IMG/VR virus record: IMGVR_UViG_2531839366_000001
Coordinates: 15,127 to 79,126 of that record
DNA from: a virus
Lineage: Duplodnaviria > Caudoviricetes
DNA: 64,000 bases
Reading direction: 5' to 3' (one strand)
The notes under the pieces are model-generated. The model ran no database searches and was not told the origin of the DNA. It worked only from the letters and a program-made list of their open reading frames with translations. Positions 23,787 to 31,197 of the stretch are shown piece by piece. Position numbers and translations under genes: made by a program. Each line of letters begins with the position of its first letter. The first letter of the stretch is position 1.

Positions 23787-24119
23787 TGTGATAAGAACCA
23801 TAAGTTTGCCGGAACGGCAAGTTTATGGTTCTTTTTGTTTATGGCAAACTTATGCTTCCGGTAATATTGATGTTTTTGAATTAAAGCTAAGAAGGAATTC
23901 TTCAACCATGGCACCAGAAATCACCTTTTATGAGCTCACAAAAGATTTTTAAGTACTTTTAATTGTGGATTTAAAACAAAGTTAAATCGTTTATATGTGA
24001 ATTTTTGATAATATAGGATTTTTTTATTAAGCAAACGGGCCATTTTTCGGAACAATAATCCATAATATATTAGTAATACCATGTGCAAACTCAATAGAGA
24101 GACACAATAAAATTTTGAG

Positions 24120-24451
24120 ATGGAGGTATTCAGAACAAAAAAATACTGTTAGGAATGCAAAAACAAACTGGGGTTATGTAGCTTCGTTTTGTGCAATTTT
24201 ATATGCAGCACCACATTTGTGGTGGGGATTAGGCATTGATTTTGTATTTACAGGTAAATGTAACTAGTAGCTGTTTTGACAGCATTGTTTGTCCTTTAAT
24301 TTGTAAGACCTTTGGGAGAAAAATTCCAAGTCTTTTGTTAATAATACCAGGGTGGATTTCAGCAGCAGGATTAATGTTTTGGGGTCTGGGCGTATTCAAC
24401 AACGGGTGCATTTATTTAATAGGAATAGCCGCTTATTTTTTTTTGTGCTAA
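24120..24451 (+). pseudogene. Decayed membrane-protein gene (DUF3995-like)
   Basis: Fragments WGYVASFCAILYAAPHLWWGLG and KIPSLLLIIPGWISAAGLMFWGLG lie in different frames. Confidence 0.4.
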
Positions 24452-24836
24452 TGATTAAGATTTTCAATAAGAGAGAAACACAAAACATTTTTGAGTATTA
24501 GACTTAATTAAGTGAAATACATACAAATACCCATAGCGCTCTAAATTGGAGTGCTAAATATACTTATTGATTATATTACCCAAATGAGGTTTTACAATAA
24601 AAGCGTTAGCAACGACTTTAAGTTAAAGATTTTGTGTCTAAAGTTGTTGAGGCTATAAATAAAAGAGATAGTAACATAATGAATTAATTCACGATTTTTC
24701 TCTCCTTTCTTTATAACTTTCTTTTAAAAGGGGCTGCTTCATTAAGAAATCTGCCTCTTCCATATTACATTACATTTTCCTTTTGAAAAACTATAGAAAG
24801 AATAGATCTAAAAAATTTAATAGAGTATATAAACAT

Positions 24837-24880
24837 AAATTAAATTGTAATGGTTAAATTAAATTGTAATGGTTAAATTA
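24837..24880. repeat. 19-bp tandem duplication upstream of the large cargo gene
   Basis: AAATTAAATTGTAATGGTT x2 plus a partial copy. Confidence 0.8.
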
Positions 24881-24955
24881 ACAAGATAATTAGGTGTTAA
24901 TTTTACTTTTTTGAATTTATGGAACTTCGGATTTTCAATAGAAAGGGTGAGAAAA

Positions 24956-27900
24956 ATGGATGATCATCTATCCCAAAATGATGTTTTTAAATTTGTAGCA
25001 CTTAGACCTCCAGCTGCAATAGATTCTGACACGGAGGAAAAAAGATTCATTAAAGACAAAAGGAATCCAGAGGATTCTATTGTTCTAAAAGAGATTGACA
25101 AGTATTTAGCAGAGGGTGTAGGAGAAGACAAATACTTTTCAACAATTCGAAGCCTCATTACAGAACATGGATATTCTCCTGATTTCTCCTTAGAGAAGAA
25201 TCAAATGTTTTTAGACATAGATAAGCTGGTTAAACAAAGTCAAAAAGAAAGTAATGGACCACAACTGATAAAAGGAATGGAGTATATATTAGGTGTTGTT
25301 CCATCTGAATATATAAAAGCAAATGAGTACAATCAAATACTTAATCATGTATGGGATAGTCTATATGCTTTTCATATAATAAATCGGGTTGAGCCAGTCA
25401 ATCTTGAGAACCTTATTCAGGATCTGAGAATACTTCACATTATTGAATATTGTTCAAAGGAATCCTCGTTTAAAAATAATATGGAATTAAATGATATTTA
25501 TGAAGCTATTCCTGTATTGCCAAAACAAGTTTTTACCATTCCGAATAATCCTGGAAGTAAGTCAGAATATCTTATTACAGATATTCATAAATCCGAGGAA
25601 ATGCATTATATAAAGCAACTTCAGGACTTTATTAGATTGTATAAAGCACATGAAGAGATAAAAGCCATTCCAGATTATTCTAAGGATGCCTTTAAAATAC
25701 ACGACGCAAATGTGAGAGAAGATAATGATTGGATAGGAGGACATATTAAAAGATGGTTACTAAATGGAGATGTAGTTAAAAGTTTGAGTGATGATACCAA
25801 GTCGGTATTAAAGAACTCAAATTTGAATATTGAAAATGATGGGTTCCTGGAAATTCTCAAAAGCTTGGAAGAACAATTACGCATAAAATCGAACAATCTT
25901 GTAAATGCTCCCAACTATGATATTTTAAAAGAATTACCTGAAGAAGTTGAAAGTATACCTGGATTAAAAAGTTACTTACATTGGATAATTGGAAAATCAT
26001 CTAATCCTATCACGTCGAAGAACCTTTCTTCTTCTTTGGATCTAAACTTTCCGCATTCCGATATCATACGACCACTATCTCCTTTGGACCCAACTTTTTC
26101 GAATTCTGGTATTATACGACCGCTGGGAATCGGAGATCTGAAGGTAGTAAAGCAGACGTTGGTAAAGTACGCAAAAGGGGAAGTAGCCCATATAGAAAAT
26201 GTGCTACTAGGTGAACATAAGGATAGAAAACATCGCAGGCTAGATCGTACAGAAGAGATATTTATGACAGAAAAAGAAACAACTGAGGCTGAAGAAAAGG
26301 ATAACCAGAGTACGGAACGGTTTGAATTAAAACAAGAAACAGAAAAAAACATTCAGTCTGACGAGAGTAAGCAAGCTGGGATAACAGTTAGCGGAGGCTA
26401 TGGACCCGTTCAAATTACTGCTCAGGGAAACTATGCTACAAGTTCATCTGTTTCCGAGTCTAAAAGAGCTTCCATGAGCTTTGCTAAGGATGTTATTGAT
26501 CGATCCGTTTCTAAAGTACAAAAGAGGTCACTAGAAAGAAGAACTAGAAAAACACTGCAGGAAATAGAAGAAATAAATGAACATGGATTTGATAACAGAA
26601 AGGGCAAAGGACATATATCTGGTATTTATAGATGGGTTGACAAGCACTATAAGGCACAGGTTTATAACTATGGAAGTCGGTTAATGATGGAATTCATTGT
26701 ACCGGAGCCTGCCGCATTTTATCTTCATAGTAAAAAATATAAACCTTTAACTGGGATGCCAGAAAACCCAAAAAATTTAGATATTACTCATAAAGATCTA
26801 ACAAGTTGGAATTACCATCAATATATAAAGGCGTATAGGGTTCAAGGAGTAAGCCCTCCACCAGCAACCTCCACAGTGGTTTCAACCGCTTTAGATAAGC
26901 CATCCGCGGAGAAAAAACAGGAGAATTTTGCAAAATCATACAAGGAAATACAGGTTCCTCCAGGTTACCGTGCAAGATGGAACTATGTTTTGTTCAATTC
27001 CATCGGGGATGATGATTCTTGGGCGACTCTTAATGTAGGAATGTGTCTATATGATCTTGCAAGAAAAAACAATAATCTTGGTAAAGCTTTATGGCAGGGG
27101 ATGTGGCATCAGCCAACTGAATTCCAGAGGATATATCTAGATGGAATGATTCCGGTAAGCATTTTAACAAGATATATAGATGCGTTCGCTCTGAATATTG
27201 AAATTCTTTGTGATGTCACGGAAGAAAGATATGAAGAGTGGCAATTGAAAACATATGACGCTATATTAACAGCTTATCATACAATGAAGCAGGATTATGA
27301 AAGAGCATTAGCATCCCAGACACTAGGAACCGTTATCTCAGGAAACAATCCTGAAATGAACCGGGTTATTGAAAAAGAGGAGCTTAAAAAGTGGTGCTTA
27401 AATCTTTTTACTAGACAAAGTTTCAATGTTTTTAATGCAATGATCTATCCTTCTAACACTACTATTAAGGGATTATATCCAGAAATCAATTTGGATATGG
27501 CTACGAGTCAGGGGAAATACATCCAATTTTTTGAACAGGCTTTTGAATGGGAGAATATGACCTATCTTTTCTATCCTTATTTTTGGGGTAAGAAGGATGA
27601 TTGGGTAGATAAACTTAACATACAGGACGCTGATCCCCTTTTTACTAAGTTTTTACAGGCGGGTTCAGCCAGAGTAATTGTTCCAGTTCCACTGGCTTAT
27701 AGACACGCAGTCTTACATTATCTTGAGACAAGCAGACCTGATAGACCAGGGGATATTTGGAATGGAGGAGATGCTCCTGTATTAGACGATCCTCTGTATA
27801 TATCAATTGTAAATGAACTAAGATCTCAACAGGATCCATATAAAGATGCAATTCCAGAGGGAGATCCATGGGATGTTATTATCCCAACCACTTTAGTTTA

Positions 27901-29925: not shown

Positions 29926-30378
29926 TAGGGGGCTTAACGCCTTATGACAACGAACCAAAACTCAATAGATTAATCGCTGAGATTACAGGTTTGCGGGGCA
30001 AAACTGCTAAAGGGGGCCTGCCATAGGTCACCCCCAAAACGATAAAATAGGATTCTTTGTTACAAGAAGGTCTAAAATTTCGTTCCGGGGGTGCTGCAAA
30101 ATTTTAACTTGATGGCGATGCGTCAGGACTCCTTAAAATAAAGGATGCGTTACTTTAAGAAAAATAAGCTAAGTTGTATCTGTTTCTCTATTTTTGTTAT
30201 TCCATTATAGGGCGCTTTAATGGAATAAGGATCACAGAAATGATCATTCTTTTTTATAAAAGAATGATTCAATTAAATAAATTAAGAACGTGTTTTGAAA
30301 AAAGATTGATCAAAATACGTTCTTTCTTTTTGCTCATTTATCAAGTTTATTAGTATCAATTTGACCAAACATTATTCC

Positions 30379-30455
30379 TGTGATATGAACCATAAGTTTT
30401 CCGAAACGGCAAGCTTATGGTTCTTTTTGTTTGCGGCAAACTTATGCTTCCTGTA
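30379..30455 (+). repeat. Second, internal copy of the transposon left end
   Basis: TGTGATATGAACCATAAGTTTTCCGAAACGGCAAGCTTATGGTTCTTTTTGTTTGCGGCAAACTTATGCTTCC aligns to 23787-23868. Confidence 0.9.
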
Positions 30456-30657
30456 GCTTTGAAATAAATTCGTACCGATTATAAAAAAGTTGATCGTTTT
30501 ATCCCTTTGGGTTTACTTATCTATAGGGATATTTTTATTAATAAAAGAAACATGATATATAAACTGAATATAAAAACGTTTTAATTCTTTAAAAATATTC
30601 CATAATTTAGTATTGTTTAAATATGGAATATTTTGTTTACATGAAAGGGGTAACTAT

Positions 30658-30861
30658 ATGTTTTTACAAAAATATAAAGGTTTGATTATTGGGATAATTG
30701 GTGCTGTTATAGGGATATTATCTTTCTTTTATCTTAAAGATTTAGATTATATGTATAGATTGGGCCTTAGATTATTTTCTATAACATTAATAACTATAGG
30801 ATGGATTATTGTCGAGAATTCGAACCATTTCTATAAAAAAAAGGATAATGGTAATGTATAG
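30658..30861 (+). CDS. 67-aa two-TM membrane protein
   Basis: ATG after GAAAGGGG; two hydrophobic helices. Confidence 0.65.
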   Translation: MFLQKYKGLIIGIIGAVIGILSFFYLKDLDYMYRLGLRLFSITLITIGWIIVENSNHFYKKKDNGNV

Positions 30862-31197
30862 ATGTTACTATTCCCAAATTTTTTTTGCGTTTTATTAATC
30901 AGAGAATCACATAGTAAGGTTAACATGTGTAATTTTAATCAACCATTTTTATAAAAATCAATCTTAAATCTACTGGAAAAGAATCTATTATAAAATCAAC
31001 GTTTGTAGCATGTTTTTGATCAAACTTTATTACAAACAAACAGCATTCACGGCAAGTTTATGGGTTAATAATTAATCCACGGCAAAGTTATGCTTCCATT
31101 TTCTTTGAACAATTAGATAAATATCTTCTAAAACAAGTGAATTCCGGCAAGTTTATGCTTCCAATTGCGGCAAACTTATAGGTAAAGTGACAGAATC

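Follow-up and report, generated by a model that had tools for sequence, protein, structure and literature searches.

A transposase-less, probably Tn7-like element in the yolD gene of a Bacillus cereus-group phage and its relatives downstream of ssrA

The stretch of DNA analyzed here, referred to as the window, comprises 64,000 nucleotides of the 79-kb IMG/VR virus record IMGVR_UViG_2531839366_000001, which is rated complete by CheckV, and its genes are laid out as in temperate phages or phage-plasmids of the Bacillus cereus group. Within the window, a yolD gene is interrupted by an element of 7,406 bp that starts with TGTGATAAG at position 23787 and finishes with AAGTGACA at position 31192. 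The interrupted gene, the ends of the element and the adjoining target sequence are arranged as follows:

23639–23650, plus strand: LexA/DinR-type box GAACATATGTTC, 41 bp 5' of the yolD start codon
23691–23786, plus strand: N-terminal part of yolD, 32 codons, ending ...PEQYEGI and colinear with the intact YolD-like gene of B. mycoides plasmid p53
23782–23786: left copy of the 5-bp target-site duplication GAATC
23787–23870, plus strand: left end, with the TGT terminus and three repeated boxes (23799, inverted; 23816; 23843)
31043–31192, plus strand: right end, with four boxes in the same orientation (31051, 31081, 31146, 31169) and the ACA terminus
31193–31197: right copy of the 5-bp target-site duplication GAATC
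31198–31455, plus strand: C-terminal part of yolD, 85 codons and stop, matching Pfam YolD (PF08863) with E 1.7e-17

A preliminary description of the window, made from the sequence alone, had proposed TGT/ACA termini, a 5-bp GAATC duplication and three to four repeated sites per end, and all of these were recovered. The TGT terminus lies at 23787 and the ACA terminus at 31192, as in Tn7-like elements. The repeated site is a 12-nt box, GGCAARNTTATR, with nine matches in the window, at 23799 (minus strand), 23816, 23843, 30408, 30435, 31051, 31081, 31146 and 31169. All nine fall within transposon ends; the shuffled sequences gave an expectation of 0.25 matches, and none of 100 shuffles reached nine. 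The outer arrays are asymmetric, the left one having three boxes and the right one four, another trait of Tn7-like elements. In line with the same description, the terminal left box is opposite in orientation to the two inner ones, and the first two left boxes form a 17-bp inverted repeat with a 3-bp spacer. The inverted terminal box is also kept in the ends of the autonomous relatives described below. No Rfam family was matched in the element.

Excision had been described as restoring an in-frame YolD of 117 aa, and the comparison with an intact allele bore this out. Joining 23691–23786 to 31198–31455, that is, removing the element and one copy of GAATC, yields an open reading frame (ORF) of 117 aa. 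Its DNA aligns without gaps, at 86% identity, to the uninterrupted 117-aa YolD-like gene of B. mycoides plasmid p53, and the encoded proteins are 90.6% identical. This plasmid represents the empty site, with GGAATT at the position of insertion.

With regard to the claim that yolD is SOS-regulated, the motif GAAC-N4-GTTC has a single match in the window, the one upstream of the yolD start codon, and with 0.66 matches expected this count is not above chance. Similar LexA-type boxes stand at the equivalent place in L008 and L090 (L and G labels denote surveyed loci and genomes, respectively). The box presumably functions in the SOS response, given the known Bacillus SOS-box consensus, and SOS regulation of yolD is plausible. 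In two plasmids whose yolD is interrupted (L096, 13140–14805; L095, 1322–2925), a further, uninterrupted yolD forms a pair with a Y-family polymerase gene, preceded by LexA-type boxes, so that loss of the targeted copy may cost little.

The ORFs of the element matched no model in Pfam, PADLOC, PHROG or NCBIfam, and no TnsAB or TniQ match was obtained in the 79-kb virus record, in agreement with the earlier statement that tns genes are absent. Relatives whose ends are 83–96% identical encode TnsB, TnsC and a TniQ/TnsD selector, all three of which are missing from the element. As this is the only respect in which it departs from Tn7-like elements, we regard it as a non-autonomous derivative. Its mobilization in trans, also proposed beforehand, is supported as the only option for the element, both by the lack of tns genes in element and record and by near-identical mini-elements that carry clean 5-bp duplications at three sites.

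These mini-elements correspond to the distal part of the element, where a second left end, overlooked in the preliminary description, makes the last 814 bp a complete element in themselves:

30379–30462, plus strand: internal second left end, 88% identical to the outer left end
30379–31192, plus strand: complete mini-element of 814 bp, from the internal left end to the right end
30613–30861, plus strand: 82-aa ORF of the mini-element, with two hydrophobic stretches

The mini-element was found alone in two phage contigs: in L008 (98.2% identical) it occupies the same yolD codon with the duplication GAATT, and in L009 (99.0% identical) it occupies an intergenic site with the duplication TTATC. 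The INPHARED phage collection gave no match to the ends or to the mini-element. Standalone copies of the 82-aa ORF, 75–87% identical and present as 67-aa genes, occur outside transposon ends on many plasmids of the B. cereus group; the matches H11–H24, which cover the inner mini-element only, are such homologues and were rejected as further elements.

The 7.4-kb unit is thus a composite of a left end, a two-gene cargo and the complete 814-bp mini-element, and the right end of the mini-element is also that of the entire unit. GAATC adjoins both this right end and the outer left end, and the 5 bp preceding the internal left end are ATTCC, unlike GAATC. Two histories fit this structure: the unit moved in one piece, using the outer left end together with the distal right end, or the same point received two insertions, after which a deletion occurred. 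In the second, the 7.4-kb unit would never have moved whole; the mini-element would have entered yolD first, a second cassette would have inserted at the same point and re-created GAATC, and the right end of that cassette would have been deleted later. Tandem pile-ups, with a new left end a few bp after a right end, are frequent both at ssrA and at other sites. A second insertion at a fixed position would also yield an identical outer duplication, and in L008 the mini-element stands by itself at the yolD site. However, the deletion would have had to end exactly at the first base of the internal left end, leaving neither a right-end remnant nor a GAATC. Further, B. thuringiensis locus L010 has, in another yolD allele, a left end of this type followed by a first cargo gene 94% identical to that of the window, so the cargo segment is itself mobile with its left end. 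The two-step history is therefore a possibility that we entertain with some doubt.

The family to which the element belongs was approached through its ends, as the preliminary description had advised. The exact right-end pattern was present at six loci in genome contigs, one of which (L019, Bacillus multifaciens) led to an autonomous element. Here, the right-end tip lies just 3' of three genes whose products were assigned by Pfam to an rve/Mu-transpos_C transposase, a TniB/AAA_22 ATPase and TniQ. Autonomous relatives with the gene order tniQ, fused tnsA–tnsB, tnsC, tniQ were found in chromosomes of the B. cereus group. The full element L023, in genome G001, encodes a TniQ of 441 aa, a TnsA-like_N+rve+Mu-transpos_C protein of 896 aa, a TnsC of 381 aa and a second TniQ of 393 aa, and lies 28 nt after the gene for transfer-messenger RNA (tmRNA; ssrA); its end architecture is that of the window's element, but its boxes are different. 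The element of genome G049 (L049) has the same gene order; it spans 14.8 kb, lies 30 nt after the tmRNA gene and encodes a TniQ of 445 aa with a helix-turn-helix (HTH) region, a TnsAB of 887 aa, a TniB/AAA_22 TnsC of 416 aa and a TniQ of 301 aa, together with a type I restriction-modification system as cargo. In both elements, a Tn7_TnsA-like_N domain is fused at the N-terminus of the transposase; among the elements considered here, this domain belongs to the autonomous relatives only. A search with the L023 TnsAB detected tnsAB in 11 of the 71 species-representative genomes that made up the genus survey set.

The left end of the G049 element is identical to that of the window at 69 of its first 72 nt and the right end at 125 of 150 nt; the right end of the G033 element likewise agrees at 125 of 150 nt, and at 25 of the terminal 26. 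Judging from these ends, elements of the G049/G033 type would be helpers, or close kin of helpers, able to move the element of the window. The TnsB-type geometry read from the termini in the preliminary description is thereby supported, as relatives with near-identical ends encode a fused TnsA–TnsB, a TniB/AAA_22 TnsC and two TniQ proteins. Between the two ssrA-resident elements, the first TniQ, which is long and has the HTH region, is 43% identical, and the second, of variable length, 29% identical. The first may be the better candidate for ssrA and the second a candidate for another pathway.

A plasmid-borne element was considered as a helper and rejected: pBFI_1 of B. cereus 03BB108 (L025, 12686–19347) has tniQ, tnsAB, tniB and tniQ together with other end boxes. 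Its second TniQ measures 514 aa, and its ends and target were not found. A tnsAB-bearing element at L077 (G034:C1 near 3088116) is an autonomous copy at another target, with its left end abutting an ORF (...GRLVEGTASNGLK|) and not ssrA. Beyond the genus, the closest plasmid TnsAB homologues are cyanobacterial (42–43%), short left-end matches occur on cyanobacterial plasmids (Nostoc, Tolypothrix), and a right-end tip in L017, a Kamptonema contig from a metagenome-assembled genome (MAG), matches the 38-nt Bacillus pattern. Either end sequences are conserved across phyla or this MAG is contaminated.

The sites occupied by the family were surveyed through BLAST-detectable ends in the species representatives and in a small number of loci from plasmids and phages, with rearrangements in several copies. 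Among 57 left-end flanks classed from the species-representative genomes, 31 lay at ssrA, approximately seven in tandem after another right end, one in yolD and approximately 18 elsewhere. The ssrA insertions are placed 28–30 nt 3' of the tmRNA gene with the left end proximal, and the main attachment site of the family is downstream of ssrA, not yolD. At ssrA, a decayed left end (TGATATGAACCATAACTTTGCCAG...) directly follows the autonomous right end in G049 (L049, 1640–1724) and also in L046, L047 and L039, and the same 52-nt left-end relic was matched in many genomes of the genus; these relics indicate that the site has been occupied repeatedly and anciently. Elsewhere, two left ends in different genomes, L071 (G051:C22) and L079 (G028:C134), have a common flank (...CGCACATTGCTTTTACTT|TGTGATAAG) that is neither ssrA nor yolD and may be a third recurrent site.

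In yolD, six left junctions (window, L008, L010, L095, L096 and L072) fall at one codon in one orientation, and a seventh, right-hand junction with a different end subtype was found in pCT281. The left end is turned towards the N-terminal portion of yolD at every junction, and the cargo differs between copies. Insertion is therefore oriented and at a fixed distance, as in Tn7-like elements, both at the tmRNA gene and at yolD. The yolD alleles differ at most third codon positions and the local pentamers are GAATC, GAATT, GTATT, CAATT, GCATA and GTATC, whereas the coding stretch for GRGMVKW.PF is conserved. Between the end of this stretch and the insertion there are 30 nt, matching the distance found after the tmRNA gene. 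The suggestion that yolD is a recurrent target is supported, seven junctions meeting at one exact codon. The idea of yolD as a new attachment site needs correction: yolD makes up one of the 57 surveyed left ends, with ssrA being the main site, and was already known as the attachment site attB of IME8, a tyrosine-recombinase element of Lysinibacillus sphaericus (PMC13239906).

Taken together, we assign a probability of roughly 0.8 to the reading that the element is a non-autonomous Tn7-like transposon of the B. cereus group, belonging to the fused-TnsAB clade, that was moved into yolD in trans by an ssrA-type relative, the site being selected. The element would keep only the cis-acting ends, with cargo in place of the transposition genes, and the proteins (TniQ, TnsAB, TnsC and TniQ) would be supplied by an autonomous relative resident 3' of ssrA in the host chromosome. 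A selector of the TniQ family probably recognizes the conserved 5' stretch of yolD encoding GRGMVKW.PF, so that the site would be chosen and not random. Under its direction, TnsC and TnsAB would insert the element at a set distance and with the left end nearest, in parallel with the 28–30 bp observed after the tmRNA gene. Insertion would then duplicate GAATC and interrupt yolD directly after the codon for the Ile that ends ...PEQYEGI.

As to which protein recognizes yolD, we put forward, with somewhat less than even confidence, that one of the two TniQ proteins is a protein-guided selector for the yolD 5' coding region, providing a dedicated route onto mobile DNA that a large population of transposase-less cargo cassettes would also use. 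The main carriers of yolD are SOS-inducible prophages, phage-plasmids and conjugative plasmids. If the proposal is true, the yolD route would be a functional counterpart of TnsE, or of the CRISPR guides in CRISPR-associated transposons (CASTs).

Several observations weigh against the interpretation of the element as a trans-mobilized, site-selected Tn7-like transposon. The boxes are putative TnsB-binding sites, a role suggested by their repetition. The virus record alone was analyzed and no helper element was shown for the host of the phage, in which a helper is presumed. No autonomous element was found inserted in yolD, no yolD lay next to any autonomous copy examined, and plasmids in PLSDB held no TnsAB at >44% identity, so the machinery was not caught using the yolD site itself. 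yolD is also a minority site, accounting for that single surveyed left end in addition to the phage and plasmid cases, and targeting is not strict, since the 18 or so flanks classed as elsewhere lie at apparently unrelated sites. In the composite, neither a right-end remnant nor GAATC precedes the internal left end. Finally, a lack of 5-bp duplications in other copies had been named in advance as evidence against the element's assignment. Apart from GAATC in the window, clean duplications were present in four further copies (GAATT in L008, TTATC in L009, CGTTT in L013 and CAATT in L095), while L012, L021, L010 and L096 lack a duplication or a partner end.

Among the alternatives concerning the target, yolD might be a hotspot that has no dedicated selector, reached either through cross-reaction of a TnsD-like protein that reads ssrA or through a structural feature of the DNA that attracts TnsC and TnsAB, for instance during SOS-induced phage transcription or replication. 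Neither TniQ has been assigned to a target by experiment, and the proportion of insertions at miscellaneous sites, about one third of those surveyed, implies that an untargeted or loose mode exists. However, when the 70 nt before the insertion were compared between ssrA and yolD, the best shifted identity was 0.35 vs. 0.32 ± 0.02 in shuffles, with no similarity above the controls; as the two target regions are not alike, different selectors probably read them. The single-codon precision and fixed orientation across diverged alleles also fit recognition of GRGMVKW.PF better, and a hotspot of this kind appears unlikely.

Much less probable still is a single ancient insertion in an ancestral yolD that was inherited vertically, with cargo exchanged later by recombination between the ends. 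All yolD junctions agree in position and orientation, functionally constrained ends could evolve more slowly than their flanks, and L010 and the window have a cargo segment in common at 94% identity, all of which would suit such a history. Against it, the window and L008 have 98.2% identity over the whole mini-element, most of which is non-coding, vs. 70–74% in the yolD flanks and 63% in the promoter region. This disparity shows that the two insertions were separate and recent, and not one inherited event. Further, the mini-element of L009 is 99.0% identical at a site outside yolD with its own duplication, the duplications in yolD follow the local allele (GAATC, GAATT, CAATT), and a close intact yolD allele exists.

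That the element belongs to another family with multi-repeat ends (IS21, which the preliminary description had kept as an alternative, Mu, Tn552 or Tn402) and merely resembles Tn7 is barely credible: TGT/ACA termini, repeated sub-terminal sites and 5-bp duplications are common to several DDE families, but relatives with 83–96% identical ends carry a TnsA-like domain fused to rve/Mu-transpos_C together with a TniB-type TnsC and TniQ, the combination that defines Tn7-like elements, and no IstA/IstB-type pair lies in the element or beside any related end examined.

Between the outer left end and the mini-element, the following ORFs were delineated:

24911–28381, plus strand: cargo gene 1, encoding a 1156-aa protein with no family match and a C-terminal extension relative to a family of ~965 aa
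28460–28765, plus strand: 101-aa ORF, a doubtful gene with no family match
28762–29925, plus strand: cargo gene 2, encoding a 387-aa protein with a hydrophobic C-terminus

The ~965-aa family of cargo gene 1 is strongly conserved, with 355 homologues across phyla and approximately 90 invariant columns, and has no known (Pfam) domain. In Massilia and Paenibacillus (L091, 6001–10934; L093, 6001–10957), the next gene after the ~965-aa one encodes a conserved 673-aa partner, with 69% identity between these distant hosts, and the pair is an uncharacterized two-gene module that moves horizontally. In the window and in B. thuringiensis, gene 1 is instead followed by the unrelated 387-aa protein, which occupies the same position in L010 and L011. 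The 101-aa ORF was not called in the B. thuringiensis relative, where 87 nt of it align at 80%. A perfect 19-bp tandem duplication (TAAATTAAATTGTAATGGT twice, at 24836–24873) lies approximately 40 bp 5' of the cargo gene start and may be an operator or promoter element.

A sequence search of the Protein Data Bank (PDB) with the cargo proteins gave no usable match, and their atlas look-alikes remained below the threshold for leads, those of the 387-aa protein being nuclease folds. The AlphaFold2 model of the 1156-aa protein, built on a 29-sequence alignment, was poor (predicted local distance difference test, pLDDT, 52; predicted template modelling score, pTM, 0.29). With this model, Foldseek returned weak jelly-roll resemblances with E ≥ 0.01 and no fold match at E ≤ 0.001. 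A reading of the cargo as a toxin locus was supported by none of the tests made. A role in defence or conflict would be in keeping with a sporadically distributed pair of genes on a mobile cassette, but no test showed it.

Outside the element, the locus is flanked on one side by FtsK/SpoIIIE-like, replication-initiator and ParA-like genes, and on the other by endolysin, holin, tail and tape-measure genes. The closest empty-site relative of the virus record is a 52-kb linear plasmid-prophage of B. mycoides.

The family is widespread in the genus. Left ends were detected in 64 of the 71 species-representative genomes, and the mini-element or its ends matched 99–240 plasmid records, almost all from Bacillus. 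Passengers found between the same ends include a 321-aa protein of no known function (L012), DeoR with an HAD hydrolase (L013), a 188-aa protein (L095) and NUDIX, MerR and phosphatase genes; in pCT281, a set comprising sigma/anti-sigma, transporter and regulator genes follows the left end, the matching right end not being established. The copies with these varied passengers are transposase-less cargo cassettes. The first two plasmid right-end flanks considered as transposase carriers contained no transposase, and both proved to be further cassettes. On the 511-kb B. mycoides plasmid p511 (L012, 1496–7708), a type I-B CRISPR-Cas operon lies approximately 5.6 kb from the cassette; as it includes cas3, it is probably unrelated to transposition.

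Comparison with known systems places the element among several partial counterparts. Like defective Tn402/Tn5053-type elements such as class 1 integrons, it lacks transposition genes, keeps both ends and would be moved in trans with its cargo; those elements belong to another branch (TniA/TniB/TniQ without TnsA), with res-site targets and another host range. The MIC231 mobile insertion cassettes (MICs) of the B. cereus group are likewise transposase-less, mobilized in trans, equipped with assorted passengers and abundant on plasmids, but they have IS231 (IS4-family) ends and no site-specific targeting. With Tn7 (TnsABC+D and TnsABC+E), the family has in common TGT/ACA ends, a 5-bp duplication, several transposase sites per end, oriented insertion at a fixed distance from a conserved gene segment and two pathways, one to a chromosomal safe site and one to mobile DNA. 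Tn7 differs in having separate TnsA and TnsB and glmS as its attachment site, in inserting 3' of glmS without disrupting it, and in a mobile-DNA pathway that uses TnsE and replication features and not a gene sequence.

The nearest known group is the fused-TnsAB clade, which includes cyanobacterial tRNA-targeting elements and type I-B2/I-D CASTs (PMC9881144, PMC11837452). Its members usually occupy tRNA attachment sites by means of a TnsD-like protein, inserting 29 ± 1 bp after the tRNA, and often have a second TniQ of unassigned target (PMC9881144, PMC11837452, PMC10293859), which has been proposed to serve horizontal transfer (PMC9881144); degraded elements of the clade may move in trans (PMC11837452). 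The Bacillus relatives resemble this clade in their TnsAB (42–43% identical to cyanobacterial proteins), TnsC and two TniQ proteins, in insertion 28–30 bp after an RNA gene, in tandem pile-ups and in defence cargo. They differ in residing in Bacillota with the tmRNA gene as attachment site, and the copy in the window differs in having no tns genes, in its location inside a protein-coding gene of phages and plasmids and in its inverted terminal left site. IME8 also integrates specifically inside yolD, in an SOS-linked yolD–uvrX context (PMC13239906); it does so in a chromosomal operon by tyrosine recombinases acting at attB, and is not a transposon and unrelated in sequence.

The Tn7 literature searched, with incomplete coverage such that an earlier description elsewhere is possible, contained no mention of yolD, tmRNA or Bacillus cassettes of this kind. 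Three points appear undescribed in it, namely how abundant gene-less cargo cassettes of this clade are in Bacillus, that tmRNA serves this group as an attachment site, and that a single codon of yolD is a recurrent target.

Tn7-like elements are studied for their choice of target and form the basis of programmable DNA insertion tools, and the role of the second TniQ in the fused-TnsAB clade is an open question (PMC9881144). The yolD codon, in a gene typical of phages and plasmids, offers a concrete and testable candidate target. Most family copies in the B. cereus group have no transposase and are cassettes on plasmids and phages that carry assorted cargo, among it regulators, enzymes and unknown two-gene modules, and a minority of chromosomes hold the machinery. 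This pattern of cassettes plus helper is a route for cargo onto inducible phages.

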